From a virus, in IMG/VR virus record IMGVR_UViG_3300032893_000002, positions 46,668-110,667 of that record: a stretch of DNA of 64,000 bases; one strand, 5' to 3'. Positions 213-20,752 of the stretch are shown in pieces. The position numbers and the translations under genes are program-made. Numbering within the stretch: the first letter of the stretch is position 1; every line of letters starts with the position of its first letter. Under the pieces are notes generated by a model. It did no database searches, had not been told where the DNA came from, and saw nothing but the letters and a program-made list of their open reading frames with translations.

Positions 213-498
213 ATTTAAATATGAAGACGCAAGAAGTTTAACGAAGACTGAGCATAACATACTTGCCTTACTTTGTGAAGGAAAGGTTAATCGCGAAATC
301 GCATGCGAACTAAAATGCACTATAGACGCTATTAAGTGTCGCTTACACAAGATATACGATAAAATAGGAATGTCTTCGAGGCTAGAAGCTGCGATATGGT
401 ATGAAACAAATCGCAACAACTTTCGCCCATTTGAAGAGGAAAATAATACAGATGATATCAATTCTTCTGCCGACGAGAAAGCGGCCTGCAAATCTTAG
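178..498 (+). CDS. LuxR-type HTH domain protein
   Basis: HTH block LTKTEHNILALLCEGKVNREIACELKCTIDAIKCRLHKIYDKIGMSSRLEAAIW is typical of the GerE/LuxR family. Start would be GTG; overlaps the preceding gene end. Confidence 0.5.
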   Translation: MNYLSTHLPVYKFKYEDARSLTKTEHNILALLCEGKVNREIACELKCTIDAIKCRLHKIYDKIGMSSRLEAAIWYETNRNNFRPFEEENNTDDINSSADEKAACKS

Positions 499-1165
499 AC
501 GATTAGTTACTTCTATCCGGGAAACATCCGTAACTAATCCCGAGATCGTTGTTTACATCGACGACGATGATAAAGAGTCAATTCCAACAGCTGAAGAACT
601 TAAACTAGTAATTCTCGTTGGCCCAAGAATTATCATGACCGACTATTGGAATAAATGTTATGATGTTTGTTCGGGCGATATTGTCATGCAAATGGGCGAC
701 GATGTGGTATTTAGAACTCCCGGTTGGGATAAAATGGTCGAAGAAGAGTTTGAAAAATGGCCAGATAAACTTATTGTAGTTCATGGTGATGATCTTGATC
801 CAAATTTTAGAAGTAGATTTGGAACACATTCCTGTGTGCATCGAAAATGGGTGGAGACTTTAGGTTATTTTATTCCTCCATTCTTTTCTTCTGATAATGG
901 AGATAGATGGCTGATGGCTGTTGCGGATTTTCTTGATCGTAGAATATTTTTGCCGTTTGTTACTGAGCATATGCATTTTAGGACACAGAAAGCAAAAATG
1001 GATTCTACATATATAGAAAGATTAGAAAGGCACGAAAAAGATAATCCAAATCAGCTCTATATTGATCTGATTGATCGCAGACTTGAAGATGCTGCAAAAA
1101 TTCAGCAAGCAATAGACGAATATGAATCCTGTCAAAAACAAGAAGAAAGTAATATACACGCTTAA
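452..1165 (+). CDS. GT-A fold glycosyltransferase-like protein (paralog 1 of 3)
   Basis: Start at MISILLPTRKRPANLRRL with GAGGAAAA RBS. Motifs LPTRKRP...VVYIDDDD...MGDDVVF (DxD). Paralogous to 17636..18487 and 19309..19977. Confidence 0.5.
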   Translation: MISILLPTRKRPANLRRLVTSIRETSVTNPEIVVYIDDDDKESIPTAEELKLVILVGPRIIMTDYWNKCYDVCSGDIVMQMGDDVVFRTPGWDKMVEEEFEKWPDKLIVVHGDDLDPNFRSRFGTHSCVHRKWVETLGYFIPPFFSSDNGDRWLMAVADFLDRRIFLPFVTEHMHFRTQKAKMDSTYIERLERHEKDNPNQLYIDLIDRRLEDAAKIQQAIDEYESCQKQEESNIHA

Positions 1166-1814
1166 TATCAACTATTCAAAAGATGTCACGAATCTAACTT
1201 ATCCCCTTCTGAGACGATATGCCAAGAAGATAGATGCTGATTTTGAAGTTATTACTTCAAGAAAATTTCCCGATTGGCCTATCGTATACGAAAAACTTCA
1301 AATCTATAACTTAGCCAGAGAACAGAATAGAGAATGGATCTACTATATCGATTCTGATGCTCTAATACATCCTGATTTTTTTGATCTAACAGATCTTGTC
1401 CAAAAAGATACAGTTATTCATACAGGAGCAGATTTTGCTCCTATTCGCTGGAAAATGGACGATTATTTCCGTCGCAACAGACGATATATTGGATCATGCA
1501 ATTGGTTTACAGTTGCTAGTAATTGGTGTTTAGATTTATGGCGTCCTCTAGACGATTTAACCCCAGAGCAAGCACTGGCTAATATTTTTCCAACAATACA
1601 AGAGGCCAAGACAATAATTACTAAAGAACATCTGATAGATGATTATACTCTAAGTAGAAATATTGCTAAGTATGGTCTCTACTTCACATCTGTTGCAGAA
1701 ATCTTAAAGAGAACAGATCCGGGAGGTAATTATTTCTGGCATCAGTATACAATTCCTATAGCTGAGAAAGTTAAAGAGTTAAAACAAATGCTCCAAATAT
1801 GGAATTTGATTTAG
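1122..1814 (+). CDS. Nucleotide-sugar transferase, GMA12/MNN10-like (GT34-like)
   Basis: REWIYYIDSDALIHPDFFDL resembles the EWIWWLDxDALI motif of galactosyl/mannosyl transferases. Confidence 0.4.
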   Translation: MNPVKNKKKVIYTLNINYSKDVTNLTYPLLRRYAKKIDADFEVITSRKFPDWPIVYEKLQIYNLAREQNREWIYYIDSDALIHPDFFDLTDLVQKDTVIHTGADFAPIRWKMDDYFRRNRRYIGSCNWFTVASNWCLDLWRPLDDLTPEQALANIFPTIQEAKTIITKEHLIDDYTLSRNIAKYGLYFTSVAEILKRTDPGGNYFWHQYTIPIAEKVKELKQMLQIWNLI

Positions 1815-2600: not shown

Positions 2601-2601
2601 T

Positions 2602-3942: not shown

Positions 3943-3967
3943 AATAATATGGAAAGAGTGTAAGTAG

Positions 3968-4726: not shown

Positions 4727-4728
4727 AG

Positions 4729-6107: not shown

Positions 6108-6832
6108 TGGCTGTCGAATTTGACGCAGTTGGACCTAATTCGTCAGGTACAGGCGGAACAGGAGTAAATATAGCTGCAACTCCTATTAATTGGAATCATA
6201 CTTGTTCCGGAACAAATGGATTATTAGTTGTATGTGTTACATATGGAGGAGGAGATAATCCAACATTCTCAGACTTTAGTGTAACATACAATAGTATTCC
6301 TATGCTTCAAGGAGCATTTCAATACAACGCAAATGATGGTACAGATTGTGCGATGCTGTTCTATCTTATTGCGCCCGCATCAGGAACGAATCAAGTTTCT
6401 CTATTTTCTAATTCGGGCTTCCTTTATGGGGATTTTCAGTGTGGATCTGTGAGTTACACAGGTGTAGATCAAATTACAGGGATAAGAAATGCTGTTAGTA
6501 ATGCAAGTTCAGGCGCATCTTCTCCAGCAACATTAACAGTATCAAGTGCTGTAGGGAACATGGTAGCATTTGGTTTAGGGTCAGGTGCATATAGCGGAAC
6601 TTCAAACCAAACGGACAGATGGCAGTTTAATCAAAATGGTGATACGGGCGGAAGCAATGGACTTCAATCTGATGCTCCAGGCGCGGCTTCTGTTTCGTTT
6701 AGCGATTCAATTAATGGCGGTGCAGGTGATTATTGGGGTATTGTAGGATTTGATATAATTGCAGCATCATCGTTATCAATTTATCCTGAAGATATGACGC
6801 CCGGATCAGAAGTAACGTTTAGAATTATTTAA
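6107..6832 (+). CDS. Member 5 of tandem paralog family (C-terminus YPEDMTPGSEVTFRII)
   Basis: TAATG overlap with upstream gene. Same core pattern and C-terminal motif. Confidence 0.6.
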   Translation: MAVEFDAVGPNSSGTGGTGVNIAATPINWNHTCSGTNGLLVVCVTYGGGDNPTFSDFSVTYNSIPMLQGAFQYNANDGTDCAMLFYLIAPASGTNQVSLFSNSGFLYGDFQCGSVSYTGVDQITGIRNAVSNASSGASSPATLTVSSAVGNMVAFGLGSGAYSGTSNQTDRWQFNQNGDTGGSNGLQSDAPGAASVSFSDSINGGAGDYWGIVGFDIIAASSLSIYPEDMTPGSEVTFRII

Positions 6833-9800
6833 TGTACCGTCAATATCAATACGACGTATTTACTGAAGGACTGCCTCCAGCCCCTGAAGTTGTAGAAGCT
6901 AGTAGCTGGGTGCAACCTCAAAGCCAGCCTATCCCGAATAACTTTGTATCGAAGTTGAAGGCTGGTGTAGTAGCTGCTCTCGTCGCTTCAGGAATATTCT
7001 ACACTGCTCTTGCTCCGCAAGTAGTAACAGCTAGCGGAATATCAGCAGACTGTAGCTTCTTTGTAATTAATAGAAGCTATGCTGCGCAAATAGCTTCAGG
7101 TGTATATTCAGTTCCATTCGTTCCGGCGGCAGCGGCAGCAGCAGGCGGATCAGGCGCATCTCAACAACTTCTAAGCTTAAAAGCTAGAGGTACGCAAGCT
7201 CATCTTCAGACAAGTACGTTTTGGAGTGCCTTCACTCCATCTGCACCTTCACAAGGCGGCGGCTTTTCTGCAGAAACAATAAGATTGCGATTCCAGCGAC
7301 GCTTCGCTTCGCAATCTCCAAGCGTTTTCTGGAATACCTTTACTCCAGCAACTGCAATTACTCCTGTAATTGCTCCATGCGCAGAATATCCAGATTCATT
7401 CTATAAGAAACGCTATTTAACAGAAGCACTAGATTCTTCTGATGGACAAGCTGTAATTGGTACTCTTCCTCCTTCGATTCAAACAGCAGTAGGAGGAGCG
7501 CAAGGAAAATCTACAGTAATCCGTATTAATCGCAGTTATGCAGCTCAAATAGCCTCAGGCGAAGTATTTGTTCCTGTTGTTGCAGCTCCGACACCAACTG
7601 GATGGTTAGGAGATCAGAATCAGCTTCCGCGAGGTAAACAATCTCTTGCTGTAGCTGAGCAGCAAGCTGTATTCTTCACTGCTCTTGCTCCGCAAGTAGT
7701 AACAGCTAGCGGAATATCAGCAGACTGTAGCTTCTTTGTAATTAATAGAAGCTATGCGTATACATCACCGTCTGTATTTTGGAATCCTAATACTCCTGTT
7801 TTACCTCCAACTGGATGGTTAGGAGATCAGAATCAGCCTCTTCCAATTAGAAAAGGATTAGCTGCAGGAGCGCAGCAGTATTCTCCTGGTGTTGTTCAAG
7901 CAGGTTCTACTCCAAGTACATTTGGATTAGTATGCGCTGAGAAGCAGCAGGTATCTCAACGATATCTAGCCGCTAATCAACAGGCTGTATTTTATACTTC
8001 TTTTGTTCAAGTATCTGTACTTAACTGGCTGCCTTCATATCCGGATTTCTTTAAACCGAAATTTTCAGCTGGCTTATATATTTATTCAACTCAAGCTAAT
8101 GTTCCGGTAGAACAATTAGCGTCTGCTGATTATCCGGATTGGATTGCTGGGAAGAAGTATTTAACAAGTAATCAACAAGCAGCATTTGGTCCGCTATCTA
8201 CATCTCCTGAAACTGTATTTGTATCAAGTTGGGCGCAACCACAATCCCAACCATATCCATATAGAAGAAGTCTACAAACAGCTCAGCAGATAGCTGTATT
8301 TTGGAATACTTCTACTCAACCTGAAGTCGTAGAAAGTGCTAGCTGGTATCCAACTTATCCGCAGCCTTTCCCGACAAAACCTTATCTCAGTACCGCTTCA
8401 CAGCAATATTATTTCTTCGGTAAACAGGTTGCGCAGGAATATCTTGTAGGAAATACTCCTGTATCGCAGCCAAGCTTTAAGCAAAGAGCAGTTGCTGTTT
8501 ACGAACCAGCTTCTAACTTCATATTTACTCCTGCTCAGACGTTTAATGCATGGCTGCCTGCTTATCCTGATAAAGTTTATAGTAGACCTTATCTCCTTGC
8601 TGCACAACAGCAAGCTGTATTTGGACCTTTATCTACAGATCAAGAAACTGTATTTGTAAGTAGTTACGTACAACCCCAATCACAGCCTTATCCATATAAG
8701 CGCAGTCTACTGACAGCGCAGCAGCAAGCAACATTCTGGAATACAAGTACTGCGACTGAAACAGTATTAGTCAGTTCTTGGGTACAGCCACAATCTCAAC
8801 CATATCCGTATAGAAAAGCTCAACTAACTGCTAATCAGCAGGCTTTGTTCTGGAATACAAGTACTCAGCCTGAAACAGTATTTGAGAGTAGTTGGCAGGG
8901 TGTTCAAAGTCCAGCTCTTCTCAATAGAAAAGTACAGCAGCCCGATTCACTGAGTTTTGTTTCAGATATCAATCTGGCTACAGTAGTTCTTCCAGATAGA
9001 AGAGTTACTGTTCCTGCAATAGCAGTCTATCTACCTTGCTCTACTTGGTTAGCTCAGCCAACAACGCAAGTATTCCTTGATTGGCAACAGCCGCAATCGC
9101 AACCGTTATCTACACGGCGTATACAGCCAGTTGATGTAGTAACAGTCGTTCCTCAGCATATCGGACTAGATTGGCAACCTGTATATCCAGATGCTGTAAT
9201 AGGAAGACGATTCCTTACAGCAGATCAGCAATGGTTGGCCTGGAATACTTCTACTCAGTCCGAAACTGTATTTGAAAGCAGTTGGCAAGGTATCACGTGG
9301 CAACCGTGGCCAGCTAAATGCTATTTATCCGCTGCTCAGCAACAGGCATTCTTCTGGCAACCTAATACTCCAGGCGACTTTACTTTCCTGTTGCATTGGG
9401 AACCGATTTATCCGCAACCTTTCCCAAAGAAACTGTATCCAGCTGCAGCGCAACAACAAGCGGTCTTCTGGAATACATCAACACAGCCTGAAACTGTATT
9501 AGTAAGTTCATGGGTACAGCCTCAAAGTCAGCCTTACCCATATAAACCCTATCGCCCTGCAGCCTTGTATCCATCTGTATTCTGGAATACAAGTACAGCA
9601 CCTGAAACTGTTTTTGTTAGCAGTTACGTACAGCCGCAGACGCAGCCTTATCCTTATAAAAAAGCTATTCAACCCTGCGAACAACTTACATTCGTTTGGG
9701 AAGAAGCAACTGCTGACGAAGTTTCAATAGATTGGGTCCAGCCTCAATCTCAGCCTTATTCTTACAGAAAAGTACTTACTACTGCAGAGCAGCAAGCAAC

Positions 9801-11484
9801 ATTCTGGAATACATCAACAAGTCCAGAAACTGTACTTGTTAGTAGTTGGGTACAACCTATCAGTCAGCCTTATCCGTATACAAAGGCTTTACAGACTGCA
9901 AACCAACAAGCGGCGATTTGGAATATATCGACGCAACCTGAAACAGTATTAGTTTCTAGTTGGGTACAACCTCAAAGTCAACCGTATCCATATAAACGAG
10001 CAGAGTTAACAGCTAATCAACCAGCCGCTTTCTGGAATACATCAACAAGTCCAGAAACGATTACTGTAGATAAATGGCTGCCTGTTTATCCGCAACCATT
10101 TCCTGTTAAACAGTACATATTAACTGCCAATCAACAAGCATTCTTCTGGCAACCAAATACGCCAGGAGATTTTAGCTATTTATACCATTGGGAGCCTGTA
10201 TACCCACAACCGTTCCCGGTAAAGAGATACTTACAGACAGCTAATGTACCAGCATTCTTCTGGAACACATCGACGCAACCGGAAAGTGTACTCGTTTCAA
10301 GTTGGGTACAATCGCAGAGTCAACCATATTCTTACAAGCCGTATCGTCCGGCTTCGTTATACCAGAGCACGTTCTATGCTCCATTCGTATCAGAAAATGT
10401 TCAAGTAAGTAGTTGGGTTCAAGCACAATCACAACCAAGAATTCAACAAACTACTATTGCTTCTCAGACAAGTTTCTTCTGGGGAGAAACAACTTCTGAT
10501 GCGGGAACATGGTATCCTGTCGTTTCACAGCAGCAAGTTAAGATATTTGCGCGTGCTGTATATGAACCTGCTGTTAGCTGGAATCCAAATACTCCAGTTC
10601 AAGTTACCCTTGACTGGCTGGCGGTTTCGGAACAACAGCTAACGAAACGCAACATACAGCAATATGCTTCTGTATTCTGGAATGCATCTACCGCTCCAGA
10701 AACTGTATTTATTTCTAGCTGGGAACCTGTTATTGCGCAACCAGTATTTACAAAACCTGCGCAATATCAAGCATTATTCTGGAGTGGATTTACACCTTCG
10801 CAACAAGTTGTTATACTAGATTGGGATACTGTATATCCGCAACCTGCTAAGCAGAGATTTGCAGCGAGCGTATATTCATATTCGATTCAAATCCATACTC
10901 CAGTTATTCAAATTGCTACGGCTGATTATCCAGACCAAATTCCTGGAAGACAGTATCTTACAGCAAATCAGCAAGCAACGTTCTGGGATCCGAATACAAC
11001 ATTCGGAGAAACTGTACTTGTTAGTAGTTGGGTGCAGCCTCAATCTCAACCGTATCCTTATACGCCATACAGTCCGGCGAGCGTGTATCCTGTTGTCTTC
11101 TGGAATACATCAATTAATCCAGAGACTGTATTTGTATCTAGTTGGATACAGCCAATTGAGCAGCCTTATCCGTTCGTTAAGGCTTTGCAACCAACAGAAC
11201 AATTAACGGCAGTATGGAGTACATTTACTCCGCCGCCACCAGTTGCTCCTGATTTTGGATGGTATCAGCAAGTTGTTCAGCCTTATCCACATTCGCGCTT
11301 CCTAGAAGCCTTACAGCAAAGCGTTACGGGCAGTAACTTCCCATTGCCTAATGCCGTAACGCAATTTGTTCAAGGAACTGGATTCGTAACGCAAGTTGTA
11401 AATGTACAAGGTTCGATAGAAAATACTGCTGCCGCTACTGGATCAATAACGACTATTAGCGGCACGGGGTCAGTAGACCAATAA
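6832..11484 (+). CDS. Giant 1550-aa P/Q/W-rich tandem-repeat protein
   Basis: More than 25 copies of a ~37-aa unit ETVxVSSWVQPQSQPYPYK...LTANQQAxFWNTSTxP. Coupled to the upstream gene by TAATG. Confidence 0.7.
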   Translation: MYRQYQYDVFTEGLPPAPEVVEASSWVQPQSQPIPNNFVSKLKAGVVAALVASGIFYTALAPQVVTASGISADCSFFVINRSYAAQIASGVYSVPFVPAAAAAAGGSGASQQLLSLKARGTQAHLQTSTFWSAFTPSAPSQGGGFSAETIRLRFQRRFASQSPSVFWNTFTPATAITPVIAPCAEYPDSFYKKRYLTEALDSSDGQAVIGTLPPSIQTAVGGAQGKSTVIRINRSYAAQIASGEVFVPVVAAPTPTGWLGDQNQLPRGKQSLAVAEQQAVFFTALAPQVVTASGISADCSFFVINRSYAYTSPSVFWNPNTPVLPPTGWLGDQNQPLPIRKGLAAGAQQYSPGVVQAGSTPSTFGLVCAEKQQVSQRYLAANQQAVFYTSFVQVSVLNWLPSYPDFFKPKFSAGLYIYSTQANVPVEQLASADYPDWIAGKKYLTSNQQAAFGPLSTSPETVFVSSWAQPQSQPYPYRRSLQTAQQIAVFWNTSTQPEVVESASWYPTYPQPFPTKPYLSTASQQYYFFGKQVAQEYLVGNTPVSQPSFKQRAVAVYEPASNFIFTPAQTFNAWLPAYPDKVYSRPYLLAAQQQAVFGPLSTDQETVFVSSYVQPQSQPYPYKRSLLTAQQQATFWNTSTATETVLVSSWVQPQSQPYPYRKAQLTANQQALFWNTSTQPETVFESSWQGVQSPALLNRKVQQPDSLSFVSDINLATVVLPDRRVTVPAIAVYLPCSTWLAQPTTQVFLDWQQPQSQPLSTRRIQPVDVVTVVPQHIGLDWQPVYPDAVIGRRFLTADQQWLAWNTSTQSETVFESSWQGITWQPWPAKCYLSAAQQQAFFWQPNTPGDFTFLLHWEPIYPQPFPKKLYPAAAQQQAVFWNTSTQPETVLVSSWVQPQSQPYPYKPYRPAALYPSVFWNTSTAPETVFVSSYVQPQTQPYPYKKAIQPCEQLTFVWEEATADEVSIDWVQPQSQPYSYRKVLTTAEQQATFWNTSTSPETVLVSSWVQPISQPYPYTKALQTANQQAAIWNISTQPETVLVSSWVQPQSQPYPYKRAELTANQPAAFWNTSTSPETITVDKWLPVYPQPFPVKQYILTANQQAFFWQPNTPGDFSYLYHWEPVYPQPFPVKRYLQTANVPAFFWNTSTQPESVLVSSWVQSQSQPYSYKPYRPASLYQSTFYAPFVSENVQVSSWVQAQSQPRIQQTTIASQTSFFWGETTSDAGTWYPVVSQQQVKIFARAVYEPAVSWNPNTPVQVTLDWLAVSEQQLTKRNIQQYASVFWNASTAPETVFISSWEPVIAQPVFTKPAQYQALFWSGFTPSQQVVILDWDTVYPQPAKQRFAASVYSYSIQIHTPVIQIATADYPDQIPGRQYLTANQQATFWDPNTTFGETVLVSSWVQPQSQPYPYTPYSPASVYPVVFWNTSINPETVFVSSWIQPIEQPYPFVKALQPTEQLTAVWSTFTPPPPVAPDFGWYQQVVQPYPHSRFLEALQQSVTGSNFPLPNAVTQFVQGTGFVTQVVNVQGSIENTAAATGSITTISGTGSVDQ
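7002..7082 (+). repeat. 81-bp direct repeat, copy 1 (identical copy at 7677..7757)
   Basis: Identical nucleotide strings encoding TALAPQVVTASGISADCSFFVINRSYA, 675 bp apart and in frame within the giant repeat gene. Confidence 0.75.
7677..7757 (+). repeat. 81-bp direct repeat, copy 2
   Basis: Same sequence as 7002..7082. Confidence 0.75.
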
Positions 11485-12097: not shown

Positions 12098-12098
12098 T

Positions 12099-13988: not shown

Positions 13989-14478
13989 TGCAGCAAGTTT
14001 AATTGCGCCCGGATTAAGACCTCTACCGCATGCAACGCGGCAGCAAGTTTTTACAGCTCTTTTCAACTTTTTAACAAACCTTCCAGCACCTACGGGAACG
14101 CGCTGGAATACGCAGTCTCAATACTTGACTTTATGGGATGATGTTCCACAAGCAAATCAGCCAGCTTGGTTTTTGTATCGCGGTCCGCAGAACTTTACGC
14201 AGAAGCATGTCTTTGGAGTACAAAAACTACTTTGGCGTGTTTCTATATTTATCTATTTTCGAACAGACGGATATAAATCACAGAATTTTTATCCAGATCA
14301 AATAACAGATCAAATTCTAGATAATCTAGAACAGCTATTTCAGACCGAAGCTCGTGACGGAAGACAAACTCTGGGCGGCACAGTTTGGCATTGCTGGATC
14401 GAAGGGAATATTGTTACAGATCCGGGACTTGTTGATGGGCAAGCCGTAATCGTATGCCCGATAAACATCCTTTTATAA
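13981..14478 (+). CDS. Hypothetical, positionally tail completion/terminator protein
   Basis: Position only; overlaps the upstream gene. Confidence 0.3.
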   Translation: MGSAASLIAPGLRPLPHATRQQVFTALFNFLTNLPAPTGTRWNTQSQYLTLWDDVPQANQPAWFLYRGPQNFTQKHVFGVQKLLWRVSIFIYFRTDGYKSQNFYPDQITDQILDNLEQLFQTEARDGRQTLGGTVWHCWIEGNIVTDPGLVDGQAVIVCPINILL

Positions 14479-14482
14479 GATT

Positions 14483-14511
14483 TTGCTTTGATTCTAGTAG
14501 TAAGTTATTAT
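14483..14511 (+). promoter_or_regulatory. Sigma70-like promoter candidate upstream of major tail gene
   Basis: TTGCTT-N17-TATTAT in an AT-rich 185-bp intergenic region. Strong AAGGAG RBS at ~14651. Confidence 0.35.
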
Positions 14512-14664
14512 AAAATTACTTTGCTACACATGTGAAAAACTAGTTACGGAGTAGCAAAAAGATTAAAAGTTTCTACAGCCTGTCAGTAGATTATTTAACA
14601 AACCATGGTTAGTTTTACAAATCTACAAAGAAATTAGTATAATTTCTAAAGGAGTTACAAGAAA

Positions 14665-15414
14665 ATGGCTGTAATTGAGTTCGGTACAGGTCTCTTGTAC
14701 GGCGTCCCGACATCAGGCAATCTGCCTACCAATCCTACTCCCATAAGACTGCTCTTACAGGAAGTATCGGTTGATTTCAAAGGCGATTTGAAGAAACTTT
14801 ATACTTTATACCAGTTGCCGATCGCAACTGCTAGAGGTAAAATCGACGTAGCTGGAAAGGCGAAGATCGTTAACTATGATCCAGATCCTATCAACCAGCT
14901 CTTTTGGGCACAGTCAATTTCACCAGGTATTGAAGTTCCTGTAGACCAAGAATTATCAACAGCGAATACGACATATACAGTTGTTAATGGTGCGACCTTT
15001 GCGCAAGATCGCGGCGTAACATATGCAACTGGAACAAAAGCAGGGCAAGTATTGCTTGCAAATACAACTGCTGCTGCTGTAGGTTACTACGCAGTTAACA
15101 CAACATCTGGTCAGTATACTTTTAACGCTGCAGATAGCACTACTGCAATGTATATCAGTTATACATATACCAATTCGACACGCGGTAAGACAATTTCTCT
15201 TTCTTCACAGGTTATGGGCTATGCTCCAGTTTGTACAATGGACGTTTGGGGTACGTTCCGTAACAAAGTGCTTGGAATTCGCCTTAACGCTTGCACACTT
15301 GGTCAATGGACCTATCCGACGAAGCTGGAAGACTTCTGGATGTCAGATATTACATTTGACGCTAATTTAGATGCCAGCAACAATTTGGGAAAAATTTTTG
15401 CTGACACCTTTTAA
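14665..15414 (+). CDS. Putative major tail (tube) protein
   Basis: 249 aa, own promoter and strong RBS, upstream of chaperone and tape measure genes. S/T-rich Ig-like C-terminal part. Confidence 0.45.
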   Translation: MAVIEFGTGLLYGVPTSGNLPTNPTPIRLLLQEVSVDFKGDLKKLYTLYQLPIATARGKIDVAGKAKIVNYDPDPINQLFWAQSISPGIEVPVDQELSTANTTYTVVNGATFAQDRGVTYATGTKAGQVLLANTTAAAVGYYAVNTTSGQYTFNAADSTTAMYISYTYTNSTRGKTISLSSQVMGYAPVCTMDVWGTFRNKVLGIRLNACTLGQWTYPTKLEDFWMSDITFDANLDASNNLGKIFADTF

Positions 15415-15498
15415 ATCAATAAGTTACGCCTTCTACTTAAAGTTACTTTTTTTGTAGATATTTGCTGACACTTATTAGAAGATATAATAATTTAGCAC

Positions 15499-15528
15499 TT
15501 GACTTCCAAGGATTGGTTTTAATATAAT
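15499..15528 (+). promoter_or_regulatory. Near-consensus sigma70-like promoter
   Basis: TTGACT-N18-TATAAT followed immediately by GGAGG. Confidence 0.45.
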
Positions 15529-15536
15529 GCCAATTC

Positions 15537-16451
15537 TTGGAGGTCATTTTATTGACTACAACACGACTTTCACATAAACAGCTAATCGAAAAAATTCGTA
15601 AAAACTTAACAAATTTCAATCCTGTACAAAAATGCGATCCCAAAAAAGGTAAAACATATGAGGAGTATTATGGACAGGAAGATGCAAAACTTATACGAGA
15701 GAAGATGCGTGATTCGCATCTTGGGCAAGAGCCAGGTAACAAAGGCAAACCTTCTCCATTTAAAAACAAAACTTATGAAGAAATAGGCAGAGGTCCAAGT
15801 CCGTTACTAGGACGCGAGCGACCACAAGAAGATCGAGATAAAATTAGTAAAGGTCATTTACTAAGATTAGGTAAAGATAAACCTTCGGAAGAGCGTGATG
15901 GACCACTCACCAGCAGATGGCGCGAGCAGGTTAAGAAACGAGATAACTATACATGTCAATGCTGTGGAGTTAAGCAAGAAGAATTGCTAAGAATAGTTGG
16001 AGATATTACATCGTGGCTTCATGCGCATCATATAAAATCTTGGGCAGAATTTCCAGAGCTTAGGTTTGAAGTATCAAATGGAATTACGCTTTGTTGGCCT
16101 TGCCACTTAAACGTCGAAGGCAAACAGATTAGCTGTCCAGAGCCGCCTCTGCAACAAGTCAAAGTCAAAAACATCAAGACTAGAGGTAAAACGCTAGAAG
16201 AAGTTTATGGATTAGAACGTGCCGCAGAGATAAAGCAACGGCTAAGGCAAAGTCATTTAGGTAAGCCAACAGGGAGAAAAGGCGTTAAGCGTCCTGGAAT
16301 AGGCGGCCGCAAAAAAGGAAGTATTCCACATAATAAAGGGAAGACGAATATCGAAATTTATGGAGTTGAAAAGGCTAAACAGCTAAGTTTAATTGCTGCA
16401 GAGAATGCGCGAGTAAATAGGAATAGATTAGGTACAGGCATTTTTCAATGA
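15537..16451 (+). CDS. Free-standing HNH homing endonuclease (likely starts at TTG 15552)
   Basis: HNH motif CQCCGVK...HAHHIKSWAEF...NGITLCWPCH. Repeated basic K/R-G modules. Confidence 0.7.
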   Translation: MEVILLTTTRLSHKQLIEKIRKNLTNFNPVQKCDPKKGKTYEEYYGQEDAKLIREKMRDSHLGQEPGNKGKPSPFKNKTYEEIGRGPSPLLGRERPQEDRDKISKGHLLRLGKDKPSEERDGPLTSRWREQVKKRDNYTCQCCGVKQEELLRIVGDITSWLHAHHIKSWAEFPELRFEVSNGITLCWPCHLNVEGKQISCPEPPLQQVKVKNIKTRGKTLEEVYGLERAAEIKQRLRQSHLGKPTGRKGVKRPGIGGRKKGSIPHNKGKTNIEIYGVEKAKQLSLIAAENARVNRNRLGTGIFQ

Positions 16452-17116
16452 ACTGGCAAGATATTCCAATATTCATTAATAATTGTAATCATCTCGATAT
16501 CGGCTTTCGGCATCTCGTCGATTGGTTAGTTAAGTCAGGAAGTAAACGAATAGAGGTGATTGATAATGCATCTACATATCCAGCTCTTTTATATTACTAC
16601 CAGAAAGAATGTCCTGTAAGAGTTACGCGAATGATGCGTAATTTGGGTCCTCAAGCATTTTGGCATGGACATTTTAATTCCGAATTTAAAGATGGCGATT
16701 ATTACGTAGTTACAGATTCAGATGTTGTTCCTGCGCAAGAATGTCCTTTTGATTTAGTTGACAAACTTGTCAATGTATTTGAAAAATACGATATTAAGCA
16801 TTGTACAAAAGTTGGTCCGGGAATTCGAATTGATAATCTGCCTGATCATTATGCTCGCAAAGCTGATGTAATTAGACACGAATCACAATTTTGGAAAACA
16901 CTAGTAGATGAGAATTTATATGACGGAGCTGTAGATACGACATTTGGTTTGTATAGAACAAAAGCATTTGTCGAACCCGGTCCTCCACAATTCCGCTTAG
17001 GTTTTCCATATGTTATTGAGCATAGACCTTGGTATATAGATAGCAACAACAGGCATATAGAAGACGAATACTATGCTGCGCATATTAATCGAAGTTGGAG
17101 TTGTTGGAGTAGATAA
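16448..17116 (+). CDS. Hypothetical, possible DxD glycosyltransferase-like protein
   Basis: YYVVTDSDVVP DxD-like motif. Sits in the glycosyltransferase block. Confidence 0.3.
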   Translation: MNWQDIPIFINNCNHLDIGFRHLVDWLVKSGSKRIEVIDNASTYPALLYYYQKECPVRVTRMMRNLGPQAFWHGHFNSEFKDGDYYVVTDSDVVPAQECPFDLVDKLVNVFEKYDIKHCTKVGPGIRIDNLPDHYARKADVIRHESQFWKTLVDENLYDGAVDTTFGLYRTKAFVEPGPPQFRLGFPYVIEHRPWYIDSNNRHIEDEYYAAHINRSWSCWSR

Positions 17117-17131
17117 ATCTTTATAAAAAAC

Positions 17132-17159
17132 TTGACATTAGCAAGTAAGTCAATATAAA
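17132..17159 (+). promoter_or_regulatory. Sigma70-like promoter candidate
   Basis: TTGACA-N16-TATAAA, ~130 nt upstream of 17292. The leader contains inverted repeats. Confidence 0.35.
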
Positions 17160-17291
17160 ATCAACTCTTAGTCGACTTGCGGCGAGAACACGCTGGCCAG
17201 TAAAAGAGCTCTAAGTCTGGAGCTGAGCTACGCAGGTTGCAAATTTCTGTGGTAAATTCAATTATAAAATTCAAACAGATAGGAGTCGTAT

Positions 17292-17630
17292 ATGGATGCA
17301 TACGAATTTGGTAAAGTTTTAAAAGATAGTAATTTTGTTTTTGGTGCAGGTGCAGCAGAAGCTGCATGCGCGCTGCGTGAACTCGCTGATAAGCTTGAAC
17401 AAGAAACTGTGGTGATTCAAAGTTGTCGTGTTACGTCGGAAGTTAGCGACAACGAATTTGCCACAACCAAACTTGAATTATGTTTGTCAGAAAAACGAAA
17501 AAGACAAGTTGCTATTACGCCAGATAAATTGCATGAAATACAAACAATTACGAGTATGCCAATAGAACCGCCTTCGCAAGACTTTTTACAAAGTATCGAA
17601 ATTGCAGAGTCGTTAAAGTATAATCACTAA
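17292..17630 (+). CDS. Hypothetical acidic protein
   Basis: ORF with AGGAG RBS. No motif recognised. Confidence 0.35.
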   Translation: MDAYEFGKVLKDSNFVFGAGAAEAACALRELADKLEQETVVIQSCRVTSEVSDNEFATTKLELCLSEKRKRQVAITPDKLHEIQTITSMPIEPPSQDFLQSIEIAESLKYNH

Positions 17631-17635
17631 TTACA

Positions 17636-18487
17636 ATGTCGAAACTATTTCATAAAGAAGTAGCTTTTACAGATCGGCTGTCTATAGTATTTCCAACAAG
17701 GAATAGACCGAATAATATTCGGAGACTTTATCAATCCCTAGTAGATACTTGTACAGTGTTGCCTGAAGTAGTACTTTACATCGATGACGATGATAAAGTC
17801 AGTATGCCGGTAGCTAAGGAGTTAGGCATTGCTGCTATTCAGGGACCGCGACGAATGCTTGCCGAATGTTACAATGAAATAGCTTATACTACATCATCAG
17901 ATTTAATTATGTATGCAGCAGATGATTTAGTATTTAGAACCAAAGATTGGGATTCAGCAGTACGACAGGTATTTAATAGGCAAGAAGATAAAATTCTTGT
18001 TGTACATGGAGACGATAAAAGTCATGGCCATACAGAACATGCTACTCACGGAATTTTACATAGAAGATGGGCAGAAACAGTTGGTTACTTTCTGCCGCCC
18101 TACTTCGGTGCTTGGGTAGACAACTGGATTACTGCTGTAGCAAATGCGCTTGGTCGTCGAGTATATGTTCCGTTTGTTAACGAGCATATGCACTATACCG
18201 TACAGAAAGCGCCGTTAGATGCTACATACGAAGAATCGCGGCCAAGACAGAACGCGGATATAGAAAAGTATAAGAATTTGAAAAATAAACGTCTTGAAGA
18301 TATTCAAAAGCTTTGGGATGTGATGTCTGATAAAACAACATTAACTCCGGTACAGGATATAGTTCATGTTGTTCAAGAACGTAAATCTACAGCGTTAGCT
18401 TGTTGCCCTTCCTGTCAGGCTGTGTGCGTTGTAGTAACAAATGGCAGGAATCAATGTAATCAGTGTGGTAGACAATTTAATCCATAG
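17636..18487 (+). CDS. GT-A fold glycosyltransferase-like protein (paralog 2) with C-terminal zinc ribbon
   Basis: Motifs FPTRNRPNNIRRL...VVLYIDDDD...AADDLVF. C-terminal CCPSC...CNQCG. Confidence 0.5.
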   Translation: MSKLFHKEVAFTDRLSIVFPTRNRPNNIRRLYQSLVDTCTVLPEVVLYIDDDDKVSMPVAKELGIAAIQGPRRMLAECYNEIAYTTSSDLIMYAADDLVFRTKDWDSAVRQVFNRQEDKILVVHGDDKSHGHTEHATHGILHRRWAETVGYFLPPYFGAWVDNWITAVANALGRRVYVPFVNEHMHYTVQKAPLDATYEESRPRQNADIEKYKNLKNKRLEDIQKLWDVMSDKTTLTPVQDIVHVVQERKSTALACCPSCQAVCVVVTNGRNQCNQCGRQFNP

Positions 18488-18490
18488 AAA

Positions 18491-19312
18491 ATGTTTCAGC
18501 ACAAACTTACCTGTCAAAAGTGCGGCTCTACATGCATCGCTCCGCATAGTAATGGAACTAGATGCAATCAATGTGGTTTTCAGATGAAGGGCATTGTTCC
18601 CGGATTTGAACCCCCTAAATACCTGCCCCGAGAACTTCCCAGAAAACAGAACATTCGCAGAAGTTTATCAGATCAAGATAAAGCTGCTTACAAGCAAACA
18701 TGGGAAACACTTAAACACAGTCGAGTAACGATTCGCGAAGATACTTTAAAGGCAAGCATCGTAATTCCGACATATAAACGGCAGCATTCATTATTTTATA
18801 CGTTGGCCTCGATATTAAGTCAAACATATACGAATTTAGAAATTGTAATTATTGATAACGAAAAGAACAGCAATTACAAATTCAGTAATAAAAGAATCAA
18901 GTATTTTCAACATACTGAAGAGCAAGGCGCTTCATATGCCAGGAATAAAGGATTAGAATATGCAACGGGCGATCTAGTCTGTTTTATGGATGACGATGAT
19001 ATAATGTTGCCAGAATATTTAGAAAAGATGGTTGTTCCATTTAGAAATGTAGAAGTTAAATGTGTAAGCTGTAATATTTTATTGGTAGAAAACGAAATTC
19101 CGCCGCATAAGCACTTCTGCACGCCAACGATTCTCATGCGGCGCGAATATGCTACGCCTACATGGGGAAAAGATGGAGCACATGATAGACATTATTTTAA
19201 TTCAATAATCGAGAAGCTGCCGAAAGAATATTACGTAGAAATTGACGATGTACTTGTTCATGCCTACACAGAGAGTGTTGGAGGATTAAGAGGCGCAGGA
19301 GCGGATTTATGA
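18491..19312 (+). CDS. Family 2 glycosyltransferase with N-terminal zinc ribbon
   Basis: GT2 signature ASIVIPTYKR...EIVIIDNE...CFMDDDD. N-terminal CQKCG...CNQCG. Confidence 0.65.
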   Translation: MFQHKLTCQKCGSTCIAPHSNGTRCNQCGFQMKGIVPGFEPPKYLPRELPRKQNIRRSLSDQDKAAYKQTWETLKHSRVTIREDTLKASIVIPTYKRQHSLFYTLASILSQTYTNLEIVIIDNEKNSNYKFSNKRIKYFQHTEEQGASYARNKGLEYATGDLVCFMDDDDIMLPEYLEKMVVPFRNVEVKCVSCNILLVENEIPPHKHFCTPTILMRREYATPTWGKDGAHDRHYFNSIIEKLPKEYYVEIDDVLVHAYTESVGGLRGAGADL

Positions 19313-19977
19313 TTTCAATAGTTTTCCCAACTAGAAAACGTCCAGATAATTTACGCCGCCTGTACGCTTCGCTACTTGAAACTTCTGTTACTATGCCAGA
19401 ATTAGTTTTATATATCGATTCTGATGACGAAGAAAGCGTTTATGTCGCAAGGGAGTTAGGACTTAATTATGCGCAAGGACCTAGACAAATCCTAGCAAAA
19501 AGTTATAATGATGCAGCTCTTCTTGCCCAAGGTGAAGTTTTGATGTTTGGCGCAGATGATATTGTATTTAGAGAGAAGCAATGGGATGTAAAAGTTTTAG
19601 CAGAATTTGCTAAATTCAAAGATCGAATTGCATTTGTATATAGTAATGATGGCGGGCGAACAGATGAACTTGGAACTCATGGATTTGTGCATAGAAATTG
19701 GGTGAGCACGGTTGGTTATTTACTTCCGCCATATTTTGAAACATGGTATGTAGATAATTGGATAACTGATGTTGCGACTGCTCTTGGAAGACGAATATAT
19801 CTTCCATATATTATTGCCGAGCATATGCACTGGGGATTCGGTAAAGCGCAGAAAGATGAAACATATAATACAGCAGAAGCAAAGCAAGCAGCTGATACGT
19901 CAAGATGGAATGCATTAAAACATAAGAAGTTAGAAGATGTAGAAAAACTTAAAGCTTTTATCGAGGCATATAGATGA
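19309..19977 (+). CDS. GT-A fold glycosyltransferase-like protein (paralog 3)
   Basis: Motifs MISIVFPTRKRPDNLRRL...LVLYIDSDD...GADDIVF...HMH, shared with 452..1165 and 17636..18487. Confidence 0.5.
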   Translation: MISIVFPTRKRPDNLRRLYASLLETSVTMPELVLYIDSDDEESVYVARELGLNYAQGPRQILAKSYNDAALLAQGEVLMFGADDIVFREKQWDVKVLAEFAKFKDRIAFVYSNDGGRTDELGTHGFVHRNWVSTVGYLLPPYFETWYVDNWITDVATALGRRIYLPYIIAEHMHWGFGKAQKDETYNTAEAKQAADTSRWNALKHKKLEDVEKLKAFIEAYR

Positions 19978-20116
19978 ATAAGGAACAAAGAATAGGTCCC
20001 CCAAAGCTTACAGGAAAACGTTTAGAGAGAAATGTTGAACAGTGCTCTCAAAAGCATTTAACTGCACTACCTAAGTACATGAATAAGGAATTTAAAATTA
20101 CATTCGGAGTACCACA

Positions 20117-20455
20117 ATGACTATAGATGTTATTATTGGCGGAGTTCAATACAAAGCCTCGCCGCTCAAACTGAAACATTTAAGACAAATTAGCGAAATG
20201 TTAACTAAAGGCATCACGCCTCCAAAGACTGTATTTGAAGATATTAGTCCTTGGATGCCTTATGTCTTTGAATGTATTCAAGCTAATCATCCTGAATTTG
20301 ATATTAAACTGTTAGAAGAATTAACCGCACAAGATTTTTTCGATATGTGGATAGCAATTGCAAATAATTCGGGTGTAAAACTATCGGGGGAACAGATGCC
20401 GATCCAACAGACTGGGCAGCAATCTACAGTCACCTCTGCTGTTGCGTCGGCTTAA
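20117..20455 (+). CDS. Tail assembly chaperone (lambda G-like), by position
   Basis: 112 aa immediately upstream of the tape measure gene. A -1 frame ORF is open from 20308 through 20748. Confidence 0.45.
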   Translation: MTIDVIIGGVQYKASPLKLKHLRQISEMLTKGITPPKTVFEDISPWMPYVFECIQANHPEFDIKLLEELTAQDFFDMWIAIANNSGVKLSGEQMPIQQTGQQSTVTSAVASA

Positions 20456-20541
20456 GCTATAGAGAGATTGACGAGCATACATTATTTGAAGCTGAAGAAA
20501 TTTGTGAATATTTAGCACAGAATCCCACGCCCGCTCAAATC

Positions 20542-20748
20542 TTGAAAACAGTTCACGGTATTACAACATCGTATACGTCGAAGCGTAAGAGACAGAAAAT
20601 GTCTGAAGAGTTAATGGAGCAAAGACTAAGTGAAGTATCCGGCTCACAAATGGGCGAAGGAGCTTCACCGCTGGATTCGCAGTTTAAAGATAGTATAGCA
20701 TTAGCAGAAGAATTAATGAAGAAAATGAAGATGCAAATCGAGAACTAA
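20542..20748 (+). CDS. Candidate -1 frameshift extension of tail chaperone (GT-like)
   Basis: The frame is -1 relative to 20117..20455 and is open back to 20308, overlapping the G-like ORF by 148 nt. A GGGGGAA run at 20386-20392 lies in the overlap. Confidence 0.35.
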   Translation: MKTVHGITTSYTSKRKRQKMSEELMEQRLSEVSGSQMGEGASPLDSQFKDSIALAEELMKKMKMQIEN

Positions 20749-20752
20749 CGTT

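Follow-up and report, generated by a model that had tools for sequence, protein, structure and literature searches.

A glycosyltransferase cassette and an HNH endonuclease at the tail-tube/chaperone junction of an uncultivated tailed phage

Why would a phage carry a set of glycosyltransferase (GT) genes in the middle of its tail operon? A stretch of 64,000 nucleotides (the window) from the genome of an uncultivated tailed phage of about 180 kb contains, between the tail-tube gene and the tail assembly chaperones, genes for an HNH endonuclease, the DxD protein, a 112-aa protein, GT1, GT2, GT3, and a 48-aa ORF, in this order (Table 1). This junction is occupied by two unrelated elements, the HNH endonuclease and a five-gene GT cassette. 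By analogy with phage Corndog, we tentatively propose, with a probability of about 0.45, that the cassette GTs glycosylate the phage's own virion proteins in the cytoplasm.

Gene content and age of the cassette

All ORFs described in an earlier reading of this DNA from its letters alone (the sequence-only reading) exist and lie on the + strand. The HNH endonuclease, the DxD protein, GT2 with its zinc ribbon, and the two paralogs of the gene at 452–1165 that it named were all recovered in ORF and family searches. It omitted two ORFs, the 112-aa one at 17292–17630 and the 48-aa one at 19974–20120. The names of the flanking genes, a putative major tail gene and putative chaperones, derive from position and synteny and not from named families. 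The tail-tube protein belongs to phrog_8234, which is annotated as of unknown function, and a homolog occupies the tail-tube slot of Acinetobacter phage vB_AbaSI_5. The G-like chaperone ORF spans 20117–20455. The T-like −1 frame contains no stop from at least 20383 up to the one at 20749–20751; it crosses the 3′ end of the G-like ORF and continues into 20542–20748, comparable to lambda G/GT.

Table 1. Features of the tail-tube/chaperone junction and related features, with positions in the window
Feature	Position	Strand	Basis
GT0, third GT-A paralog	452..1165 (ORF maybe from 401)	+	phrog_14945 E=2.9e-31
Possible further GT-A-like gene adjoining GT0 (weak)	1122..1814	+	Pfam Glyco_transf_34 E=0.0071, under curated cut-off; DxD-like motif WIYYIDSDALI
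1550-aa lineage-specific repeat protein	6832..11484	+	12 copies of ~38-aa unit with FWN(T/A/I)ST
Putative major tail (tube) protein, 249 aa	14665..15414	+	phrog_8234 E=3.5e-37; position; synteny in L001, L003, L004, L096, vB_AbaSI_5
20-nt direct repeat	15394..15477	+	Tail-tube gene 3′ end 15394–15413 again at 15458–15477; family D8, 85% identity, spacing 64
Sigma-70-like promoter match, 5′ of HNH	15499..15528	+	TTGACT-18-TATAAT, 11/12; in sequence absent from L096
Putative free-standing HNH homing endonuclease	15552..16451	+	Pfam HNH E=3.6e-6; PHROG HNH families down to 2.3e-14
DxD protein, divergent soluble GT-A-like glycosyltransferase, first cassette gene	16448..17116	+	Pfam GT2 E=0.035 only; family alignment; AF2
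Promoter-like element, 5′ of 112-aa gene	17132..17161	+	TTGACA-18-TAAAAT, 11/12; conserved in L096
112-aa protein, conserved cassette member	17292..17630	+	L096 ortholog, same place, about 54–56% identical
GT1, GT-A paralog with C-terminal zinc ribbon	17636..18487	+	phrog_14945 E=6.7e-37
Zinc ribbon, GT1 C-terminus	18404–18466	+	Motif search
GT2, classical GT2 glycosyltransferase with N-terminal zinc ribbon	18491..19312	+	Pfam GT2 E=4.6e-28
Zinc ribbon, GT2 N-terminus	18512–18574	+	Motif search
GT3, GT-A paralog	19309..19977	+	phrog_14945 E=1.3e-43
48-aa ORF	19974..20120	+	Gene call in L005–L008; absent in L096
Putative tail assembly chaperone pair (G/T-type)	20117..20751	+	Between tail tube and tape measure; homologs in L001, L003, L096
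Putative tape measure protein, 2767 aa	20753..29056	+	Size, position; homologs in L001, L003, L096

The tail-tube proteins of the relatives compared at this junction are 92% (L096), 72% (L001), 63% (L003), and 36% (L004) identical to that of the window. The block was expected to be extra with respect to related phages, and this holds: the tail tube is followed directly by the chaperone in L001 and L004, and only by an HNH gene in L003. L096 carries the five-gene cassette at the same site, where its GT3 is followed directly by the chaperone. Amino-acid identities between the two cassettes are about 54–75% (61–75% for the four GT genes), pN is 0.18–0.30, and synonymous sites are saturated, similar to the flanking connector genes. 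Since the divergence from L096 matches that of the flanking structural genes, the cassette did not enter this site recently. It appears from this comparison to be functional and old, with its genes under purifying selection. Neither flanking repeats, in a repeat search, nor a GC anomaly was found at the cassette. The 112-aa protein has a 35%-identical homolog among the head-tail genes of L001, and matches no Pfam or PHROG family above threshold.

Promoter sites had been reported at 15499 and 17132, and promoter-like matches are present at both. A block of about 55 nt at the second site is conserved in L096, and the remainder of the spacer is not. Over 10 kb, 40 sigma-70-like sites were counted, with 28 ± 6 expected.

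The glycosyltransferases and their zinc ribbons

The cassette enzymes are predicted to be soluble, cytoplasmic GT-A glycosyltransferases, and none of the cassette proteins contains a transmembrane segment. The AF2 model of GT3 (pLDDT 95) has a GT-A fold with clear matches to GT-A glycosyltransferases; its nearest solved structures are SpsA, RmlT, and TarP (TM about 0.6). The best PDB sequence relatives of GT2 are GalT1, the PglI-like AvpGT, and TarP. The DxD protein is also modelled with confidence (pLDDT 93), and its matches to GT-A enzymes are weak. In an alignment of 30 family members, residues D39-N40, D90-x-D92, E145, D163-T-T, and H192 are invariant, and all are kept in the window protein. 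The DxD protein is paired with the GT family in nine viral loci, including L015 (49% identity).

GT0, GT1, and GT3 are paralogs, as previously suggested: GT0 is 42–44% identical to GT1 and GT3, all three match phrog_14945, and a neighbor-joining tree places GT3 as sister to GT1. The three proteins keep 20 invariant family residues, so that neither they nor the DxD protein appear degenerate, which argues against the concern that they might be catalytically dead. The family had been called distinctive; it is large and widespread among viruses, with about 977 clusters at E<=1e-30, mostly in viral sugar-nucleotide or multi-GT islands. Nor is its triplication peculiar to the window, as three copies, placed elsewhere, also occur in the closest 176-kb relative. 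The GT set of the late/virion region comprises five certain genes and a possible sixth at 1122–1814, the product of which has no PDB sequence match.

Zinc ribbons, which may serve in substrate or virion docking, had been noted at the C-terminus of GT1 and the N-terminus of GT2. Both exist and are homologous to each other, and no further motif of this kind occurs in any real ORF of the window. In L096 the GT1 ribbon is identical and that of GT2 conserved. The GT1 ribbon is also homologous to the C-terminus of the TerL of L015 (blastp 1e-7), and a ribbon recurs on the GT of L081.

The family has changed its place within the lineage. In the window and L096, GT0 is located upstream of the genes preceding the head-tail adaptor, and the relative contig 000514 (L039) has a 70% identical GT0 ortholog at the syntenic place. 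Directly upstream of TerS/TerL in the same contig is a DxD–GT pair, with further GT-like genes immediately downstream. The sequence-only reading had considered that related phages might carry these genes elsewhere with known non-virion targets; the first part is borne out, though the pair is not known to have a non-virion target. In L081, genes for a ribbon-bearing GT, a methyltransferase, a UDP-glucose dehydrogenase, and a phrog_1574 protein with a weak Anp1/GT-like match precede those for a 370-aa protein and the head-tail adaptor. In the podovirus-like L043, L046, L053, and L063, the GT family is part of a multi-GT island flanked by the major capsid gene and virion structural genes.

Possible targets of the glycosyltransferases

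Because the cassette encodes three different GT-A types, one of which is duplicated, the GTs may act one after another, assembling a short oligosaccharide with nucleotide sugars of the host. Position and analogy suggest that the acceptor would be one or more virion proteins made simultaneously from the same operon; possible acceptors are the tail tube, a head protein, and, more speculatively, the 1550-aa FWNTST-repeat protein. The resulting sugar coat could alter the particle surface and thereby adsorption, stability, or recognition. The retention of invariant residues by the DxD protein and the three paralogs, the predicted solubility of the proteins, and the siting in virion modules, both within the lineage and in the independent podovirus-like one, are consistent with such a role. 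A further hint may come from a GT family member that carries fused TPR and GT41 parts, GT41 being a family that includes protein glycosyltransferases such as OGT.

Two precedents point in the same direction by analogy. In the accounts of Freeman et al. 2023 given in PMC11600133 and PMC12363180, mycobacteriophage virion glycosylation involves Corndog gp35–38, Che8 gp110, and Myrna. Between its gp34 and capsid genes, Corndog encodes a methyltransferase and three GTs, and thus shares with the window several soluble phage GTs in tandem within a siphovirus structural operon; the arrangement in L081 ahead of head genes is also reminiscent of it. The outcome would be the same as in the mycobacteriophages, glycans on capsid and tail-tube subunits. 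However, Corndog gp36–38 have no BLAST-detectable similarity to the cassette, and the window phage differs in its GT-A families, insertion between tail tube and chaperone, zinc-ribbon appendages, and genome GC content (about 40%, versus the 61% given for a cluster F1 mycobacteriophage in PMC11256854). In chloroviruses, soluble virus-encoded GTs act on the capsid protein (PBCV-1 A064R, A075L, A071R, and others; PMC9614988). The likeness lies in multiple soluble cytoplasmic GT-A enzymes of viral origin and, as proposed here, a glycan placed on a virion protein independently of the host. It extends to giant viruses, since GT3 finds its best structural match among viruses in a mimivirus GT2 (TM 0.95, 35% identity), followed by M1IPF3. 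Nevertheless, chloroviruses infect eukaryotes and carry N-linked glycans on Vp54.

Other observations speak against virion glycosylation. Unlike in the mycobacteriophage system, inspection of the tail-tube sequence revealed no Ser/Thr-rich C-terminal tail, and its sequon excess is not significant (z=0.95). In the 80 other GT loci, no repeat protein similar to the 1550-aa one occurs. The 1550-aa protein contains 16 N-x-S/T sequons where 8.2 are expected (z about 3), and its FWN(T/A/I)ST motif is conserved in the L001 homolog; a search among 5.8 billion proteins yielded only six homologs. Furthermore, the GT family is not generally tied to structural modules: it is found in an island beside primase and exonuclease genes in L017 and L028, and with a nucleotidyltransferase among DNA-metabolism genes in Streptomyces BE/BK phages. 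The block, with its internal sigma-70-like promoters, could also be expressed at times other than the late programme.

The enzymes with the nearest solved structures use teichoic acids or polysaccharides as acceptors, not proteins, which counts against a virion-protein acceptor and raises the unlikely alternative that the GTs modify a host envelope glycan (LPS/O-antigen, teichoic acid, capsule, or S-layer), blocking superinfection or preventing progeny from re-adsorbing to lysing cells. These structures include TarP, TarS, RmlT, SpsA, and heparosan and chondroitin synthases, and TarP is itself prophage-encoded. The promoters within the block, the PHROG class "moron, auxiliary metabolic gene and host takeover", the weak matches of GT2 to GtrB-like families, and the UDP-glucose dehydrogenase and epimerase/dehydratase genes that accompany the GT family in most viral loci, as in polysaccharide loci, fit this alternative. 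Against it, there is no GtrA-like flippase or GtrC-like partner nearby, no integrase or lysogeny gene was seen in the window, and a conserved position in mid-tail operon with structural-gene-like divergence is unusual for a moron. The lack of transmembrane segments only weakens it, because peripheral soluble GTs can act on lipid-linked glycans.

It is quite unlikely that the GTs glycosylate the phage DNA, attaching sugars to a modified base as a protection from nucleases of the host, as in T-even phages and as described by Pyle et al. (bioRxiv 10.1101/2023.12.21.572611). These authors report GT-A-fold phage enzymes with TarP-like/JGT-like structures that hypermodify 5hmC DNA, found in viral metagenomes, sometimes with epimerases and secondary GTs. 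A DNA target would suit the family members among replication and nucleotide-metabolism genes of Streptomyces phages and those of L017 and L028, the match of the GT3 model to the GT-A part of Pas34 (596 aa, Actinoplanes phage phiAsp2), the match of GT3 to phrog_2675, annotated "DNA methyltransferase", and the recurrence of the zinc ribbon on the TerL of the relative, an enzyme that handles DNA. The phage also invests in DNA modification, as QueD and radical-SAM QueE-like genes are located at 52–54 kb of the window. However, the 7-deazaguanine bases described in phages (preQ0, preQ1, G+, and relatives) are not known to have a hydroxyl that would allow O-glycosylation. The GTs of Pyle et al. cluster with 5mYOX/C5-methyltransferase or thymidylate-synthase-like genes, and contigs without such neighbours were considered less likely to encode DNA-acting enzymes; the scanned window proteins, from 64 of about 180 kb, included neither a thymidylate-synthase-like hydroxymethylase nor a 5mYOX/TET or C5-methyltransferase. 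The cassette, moreover, sits in the tail operon and co-evolves with the late structural genes of its lineage, which speaks against a DNA target.

The HNH endonuclease at the junction

The longest HNH ORF begins at 15537, but translation probably starts with the TTG at 15552, which follows a GGAGG by 8 nt. HNH homologs occupy the same site in L002 and L003; the gene is intact in the window and in L003, and L001 retains a decayed remnant, ELRYTVSNGLTLCPSCH. The HNH is independent of the cassette because L096 has the cassette without an HNH, L003 an HNH without the cassette, and L001 only the remnant. It is probably a homing endonuclease at a recurrent hotspot, repeatedly lost and regained in the lineage, and is unrelated to glycosylation, despite having been grouped with the GTs. 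Synteny consequently upholds the earlier view that the block is additional at this site but not that it is a single mobile unit. Free-standing HNHs of phage structural modules, such as Corndog gp56 between the chaperones and tape measure, share with it the HNH motif, a site between conserved late genes, and patchy presence, with absence or decay in close relatives; homing is here putative, from sequence.

The notion that the whole 4.6-kb block is one selfish element, its HNH mobilising GTs as passive cargo with no role for the phage, is very improbable: the hotspot, the different locus of the DxD–GT pair in a 176-kb relative, and the 20-nt duplication of the tail-tube 3′ end flanking the start of the HNH segment would suit it, but the L096 cassette occupies the same site with no HNH, terminal repeats and a GC anomaly are lacking at the cassette, and its conservation, with apparent purifying selection and retained invariant residues, disfavours passive cargo. 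The duplication is a possible scar of HNH insertion, and an HNH may have aided relocation of the cassette in the past. The lineage abounds in other selfish elements: both L096 and L001 carry GIY-YIG genes, and inteins are present within DnaB and the QueE-like gene.

Gene organization and history of the tail tube–chaperone junction

The junction between the tail-tube gene and the tail chaperones contains an HNH endonuclease gene and a cassette of five genes, all located on the plus strand (see the table). The cassette encodes a DxD-motif protein, a 112-residue protein, the paralogous glycosyltransferases (GTs) GT1 and GT3, and GT2zn, a classical family 2 enzyme with a zinc ribbon; a third paralog, GT0, is encoded at positions 452–1165. 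The 249-residue protein occupies the tail-tube slot in all relatives examined, including Acinetobacter phage vB_AbaSI_5. Of the two small ORFs between the tail tube and the tape measure, the second is in the -1 frame and overlaps the first; this frame stays open from position 20383 or earlier, runs past position 20455, where the G-like ORF ends, and closes with a stop codon at 20749–20751. The overlap lacks a canonical XXXYYYZ slippery site, and neither ORF has a Pfam or PHROG match. The gene layout, the frame analysis of the chaperones, and the synteny of the tail tube, together with ORF, Pfam, and PHROG checks, therefore bear out the gene anatomy described in the sequence-only reading, which had overlooked only the 112- and 48-residue ORFs.

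Features of the window discussed in the text
Feature	Position	Strand	Assignment
GT0	452-1165		phrog_14945
Possible further GT-A enzyme	1122-1814		sub-threshold Glyco_transf_34
1550-aa repeat protein	6832-11484
Two small virion-module proteins	11681-12410		second fibronectin-III-like
249-aa protein	14665-15414	+	phrog_8234 (function unknown); tail-tube slot
20-nt direct repeat	15394-15413 and 15458-15477
HNH endonuclease	15537/15552-16451	+	Pfam HNH, HNH_2; PHROG HNH families
222-aa DxD protein	16448-17116	+	GT-A-like model
112-aa ORF	17292-17630	+
GT1, 283 aa	17636-18487	+	phrog_14945
GT2zn, 273 aa	18491-19312	+	Pfam GT2
GT3, 222 aa	19309-19977	+	phrog_14945
48-aa ORF	19974-20120	+
Two small ORFs	20117-20455 and 20542-20748	+	lambda G/GT layout
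Tape measure, 2767 aa	20753-29056	+
Probable lysis region	40641-43701
DnaB-like helicase	49156-51798	-	contains intein
Radical-SAM QueE-like	52061-53668	-	contains Hint/intein
PTPS-family (QueD-type)	53777-54265	-	PTPS, E = 1e-28
PTH2 peptidyl-tRNA hydrolase	61783-62274	-
Thg1-family tRNA-His guanylyltransferase-like	62852-63643	-	E = 1.8e-24

Among 50,697 phage records, blastn found no DNA-level relative of positions 14000–21000. The proteins of the window recur in environmental assemblies from ENA, JGI, and Logan, where the contigs reach 180,030 bp. A related tail tube was found on four viral contigs, L001–L004, and a fifth contig, L096, was identified through a search with the DxD protein. 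The tail tube is followed directly by the chaperone in L001, a locus of a 176-kb relative (tail tube 72% identical), and in L004 (36%), and the sole intervening gene in L002 and L003 (63%) is an HNH homolog. L096 lacks an HNH gene here; its tail tube, 92% identical, is followed by the DxD protein, a 113-residue ORF, ribbon-bearing GT1 and GT2zn, GT3, and the chaperone. The presence of the cassette without the endonuclease shows that the junction contains two separate elements, an intermittently present homing endonuclease and a five-gene GT cassette. The sequence-only reading had described one inserted block, possibly mobile. The synteny comparison confirms that these genes are extra relative to most relatives, and the block proves to be composite, since the HNH gene and the cassette each occur without the other.

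The cassette proteins are 56–75% identical to those of L096 (61–75% for the four GT genes and 56% for the 112-residue ORF), with pN values of 0.18–0.30 and saturated synonymous sites; this divergence equals that of the adjacent connector genes and speaks against a recent acquisition. The cassette predates the split of the two phages and was present in their common ancestor. There is no GC anomaly across it. Transposon-like ends were considered, and a repeat search around the cassette found no flanking terminal repeats. A promoter-like element upstream of the 112-residue protein gene is conserved in the window and L096. The T4-like late-promoter word (ATATAAAAT) is not enriched (54 observed, 52.7 expected), and in the search for structured RNA within the block the sole signal, at the 15499 hairpin, was miRNA-like noise below the threshold.

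The 176-kb relative contains three copies of the paralog family, as does the window. Its ortholog of GT0 is 70% identical and syntenic, and a second copy is GT0-like. Furthermore, a DxD plus GT pair, 49–50% identical to that of the window, directly precedes the genes for the small and large terminase, and directly downstream of these are a weakly GT2-like gene and a phrog_1574 gene (unknown function) with a weak match to a glycosyltransferase PHROG. In a neighbor-joining tree, GT1 and GT3 are sisters, and the terminase-adjacent GT is their outgroup. The likeliest history, as judged from these sequences, would be that a DxD plus GT pair came to the tail junction in the window lineage, followed by duplication and by the gain of GT2zn and the 112-residue protein gene.

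The HNH gene matches Pfam HNH (E = 3.6e-6) and HNH_2 (E = 4.9e-5), and PHROG HNH families down to 2.3e-14. At this junction it is present in the window and in L002/L003, absent from L096 and L004, and reduced to a remnant in L001 (10760–10975, between the tail tube and the chaperone), where the short spacer encodes ELRYTVSNGLTLCPSCH, a decayed copy of the HNH motif of the window. An intact GIY-YIG-type homing endonuclease is encoded at 9294–10010 of L001, directly upstream of the tail-tube gene, and in L096 a GIY-YIG gene separates the head-completion gene from the connector gene that follows it. In the window, the final codons of the tail-tube gene, stop included, recur 64 nt downstream as a 20-nt direct repeat (85% identity) where the HNH-specific segment begins; the repeat may be a scar of insertion or co-conversion. 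The tail-tube gene of L003 is split in frame by 243 nt with a stop codon (10703–10945; the same occurs in L002), and its conserved C-terminal 24 codons resume past the interruption. A small intron, recoding of the stop, or displacement of the gene end beside the HNH gene could each account for this. A group I intron was considered for this site; Rfam found none, and the fold z-score is just -2.3. Additionally, the DnaB-like helicase, whose Pfam DnaB_C match is below the curated cut-off, contains an intein with a LAGLIDADG endonuclease, and the QueE-like gene carries an intein with an embedded HNH. With the HNH gene and the inteins, the genome is rich in selfish elements, and a tail-operon junction can gather selfish nucleases and useful cargo alike.

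Glycosyltransferase families and zinc ribbons

The Pfam GT2 profile (PF00535) matches GT2zn (E = 4.6e-28), GT3 (E = 2.6e-7), and GT1 (E = 3.8e-5) above the curated cut-off. The closest relatives of GT2zn by sequence among solved structures are GalT1, a PglI-like enzyme, and TarP. GT0, GT1, and GT3 share 42–44% pairwise identity and all belong to phrog_14945. The AF2 model of GT3 (pLDDT 95) has a Rossmann-like GT-A fold; in Foldseek searches the closest solved structures are SpsA, RmlT, and TarP, with E values of about 1e-8 and TM scores of 0.57–0.69 (about 0.6). In comparisons with predicted viral structures, the model aligns with a mimivirus GT2 at a TM score of 0.95 and matches Pas34 of Actinoplanes phage phiAsp2 as well. 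The DxD protein forms a separate family with more than 160 homologs. Its match to the Pfam GT2 profile is below the cut-off (E = 0.035), several of its homologs have a precomputed PF00535 match, and its model (pLDDT 93) is GT-A-like, with weaker GT-A matches (TM 0.4–0.56). The product of 1122–1814, a gene overlapping the end of GT0, contains a WIYYIDSD motif, has a sub-threshold Glyco_transf_34 match (E = 0.0071), and may represent another GT-A enzyme.

Across 31 members of the family, GT0, GT1, and GT3 among them, the motifs YID(D/S)DD, ADD, and EHMH vary little or not at all, and all 20 invariant positions of the family are retained in the three paralogs. The DxD protein likewise keeps the invariants of its own family (D39-N40, D90-x-D92, and the E, D-T-T, and H positions). 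Because these residues are kept, none of the four proteins looks catalytically dead, an outcome that, for the paralogs, the sequence-only reading had named as fatal to its proposal.

The paralog family, which had been called distinctive, is in fact common: when 1.84 billion representative proteins were searched with a profile, 977 clusters matched at E ≤ 1e-30, and the number rose to 5,079 when the threshold was E ≤ 1e-10. The commonest neighbors in 80 viral loci with the family are UDP-glucose/GDP-mannose dehydrogenases (39/80) and NAD-dependent epimerases/dehydratases (30/80), followed by other GT-A and GT-B enzymes and radical-SAM enzymes. Family members are fused to methyltransferase, epimerase, radical-SAM, and GT-B domains, and once to TPR and GT41. 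In one member, P0180, a LAGLIDADG-containing intein interrupts the protein. In a podovirus-like group, the GT island has the major capsid gene on one side and virion structural genes on the other; in another viral group it adjoins primase and exonuclease genes, and Streptomyces BE/BK phages have two GTs and a nucleotidyltransferase amid DNA-metabolism genes. Given this mixed genomic context, family membership as such is not diagnostic of the target.

Two zinc ribbons are encoded back to back at the GT1/GT2zn junction, at the C-terminus of GT1 (CCPSCQAVCVVVTNGRNQCNQCG) and the N-terminus of GT2zn (CQKCGSTCIAPHSNGTRCNQCG). Their pattern has five cysteines, C-x2-C-x3-C-x7-8-C-x2-C-G, and does not recur in the other real ORFs of the window. 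Both ribbons are kept in L096, where that of GT1 is identical, and a homologous ribbon closes a GT in the more distant relative L081. In the 176-kb relative, a homologous ribbon closes the large terminase (blastp 1e-7; terminase identity backed by phrog_2), which adjoins a run of GT-like genes. Since the ribbon is again found beside GT-like genes, it may be tied to the GT cluster and not to packaging. Ribbon fusion is rare within the paralog family, because none of the 51 GT3 homologs among the matches listed is long enough for such an extension.

Candidate targets of the cassette

The reading that we favor, with a probability of about 45%, is that the cassette acts on virion proteins of the phage itself. 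It is favored because of the placement in the virion module, the capsid-adjacent islands elsewhere, and the precedents of Corndog and the chloroviruses. GTs are encoded in or beside the virion structural operon in the window, L096, and L081. In L081, whose tail tube is 45% identical to that of the window, a ribbon-bearing GT, a methyltransferase, a UDP-glucose dehydrogenase, and a phrog_1574 protein are encoded just upstream of a 370-residue protein and the head-tail adaptor. With the genes of the window and the 176-kb relative, all locatable GT genes of the lineage are therefore within the packaging/virion region. Three soluble GT-A types, one of them duplicated, would build an oligosaccharide stepwise, which is the simplest reading of a late-operon set that purifying selection has maintained as a unit. 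To our knowledge, virion glycosylation of tailed phages has been shown experimentally in a few mycobacteriophages only, where it alters antibody recognition.

The cassette is best classed with phage-encoded glycosylation cassettes in structural operons. [quoted passage not shown] In chloroviruses, soluble viral GTs act on the capsid protein (PMC9614988). A published summary places the acceptor region in mycobacteriophages at the C-termini of capsid and tail-tube subunits (PMC12619734). The C-terminus of the window tail tube (…NLGKIFADTF) is not Ser/Thr-rich. If the favored reading is true, particle glycosylation extends to a very different, uncultivated siphovirus lineage with genomes of about 180 kb, and is performed by GT-A families that are plentiful in viral metagenomes (E ≤ 1e-30 for about 1,000 clusters) and usually occur with viral genes for UDP-glucose dehydrogenase and epimerase/dehydratase. 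Many unexplained phage glycan islands would then have a working hypothesis, and a small cloneable test system would be at hand, consisting of the cassette and the tail tube or the repeat protein.

That repeat protein, lineage-specific and 1550 residues long, is encoded upstream of the head-tail adaptor, with three small ORFs between them, where a capsid or decoration gene is expected. Pfam and PHROG scans of the proteins of 1122–11484 for head proteins returned only a glycine-rich domain and the weak GT34 match, and no capsid gene was recognized in the window. The protein has an N-terminal hydrophobic segment and consists mostly of repeats of about 38 residues (…ANQQAxFWNTSTxPETVxVSSWVQPQSQPYPYK…) with 12 invariant WN(T/A/I)S motifs, one FWN(T/A/I)ST per repeat, a motif kept in the L001 homolog. 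It has six homologs, none annotated, in 5.8 billion proteins. Enrichment in N-x-S/T sequons was considered as an acceptor signal: it is significant just in this protein (z about 3), where it reflects repeat conservation, and in the product of 30276–31349 (z = 2.5); the tail tube shows no significant excess (z = 0.95). FWNTST-like repeat proteins occur near none of the 80 other GT loci. The role of the 1550-residue protein as an acceptor is speculative, and no other link to the GTs was found. The two small virion-module proteins encoded at 11681–12410 have signal-peptide-like hydrophobic N-termini, MKRFIMFVVIVFAIFSLGA… and MKFRYLLLFLLLNQYSFAS…, which are odd for virion parts assembled in the cytoplasm.

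It is very doubtful that the ribbon is a portable docking module of the lineage that couples the GTs to virion assembly, with the 1550-residue protein as the main acceptor. The ribbons would then tether the GTs to one another or to the assembling particle (procapsid, portal vertex, or tail), physically coupling glycosylation to assembly, and the protein with its 12 FWNTST repeats would serve as the chief acceptor. If this is so, GT families without a characterized member would make up a virion glycosylation machine that is coupled to assembly and occurs outside actinobacteriophages.

Modification of the host envelope is unlikely: the structural neighbors of GT3 are teichoic-acid and polysaccharide GTs, but the cassette is without membrane or flippase partners, and its conserved mid-operon position is atypical of a moron. 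No cassette protein contains a hydrophobic segment, and the set thus differs from a Gtr serotype-conversion cassette in lacking a membrane-anchored GtrB as well as GtrA- or GtrC-like neighbors. The GtrB-like PHROG matches of GT2zn are weak and confined to the nucleotide-binding half.

Phage DNA is a still less likely target. Phage GT-A enzymes are capable of DNA glycosylation (bioRxiv 10.1101/2023.12.21.572611), and some contexts of the paralog family are replicative; however, ThyS-like, 5mYOX/TET, and C5-MT partners were not found among the scanned proteins of the window, which covers 64 kb of a genome of about 180 kb, and the top neighbor clusters in the 80 viral loci include no hydroxymethylating or oxidizing partner. 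The window instead contains candidate 7-deazaguanine (queuosine-precursor) pathway genes, the QueE-like and QueD-type genes at 52061–54265, which suggest that the phage DNA may bear a 7-deazaguanine base; no DpdA-type transglycosylase was detected among the scanned proteins. The weakest alternative, that the HNH gene and the GTs form a single selfish element with cargo, is barely credible given the arrangement in L096.

Elsewhere in the window, the Thg1-like and PTH2 genes occur although the window contains no tRNA genes. The probable lysis region encodes several small membrane proteins along with one Tlde1-domain and one Peptidase_C1 protein, and homologs of two of the lysis-region proteins are encoded upstream of a GT-family gene in the 176-kb relative (L040).
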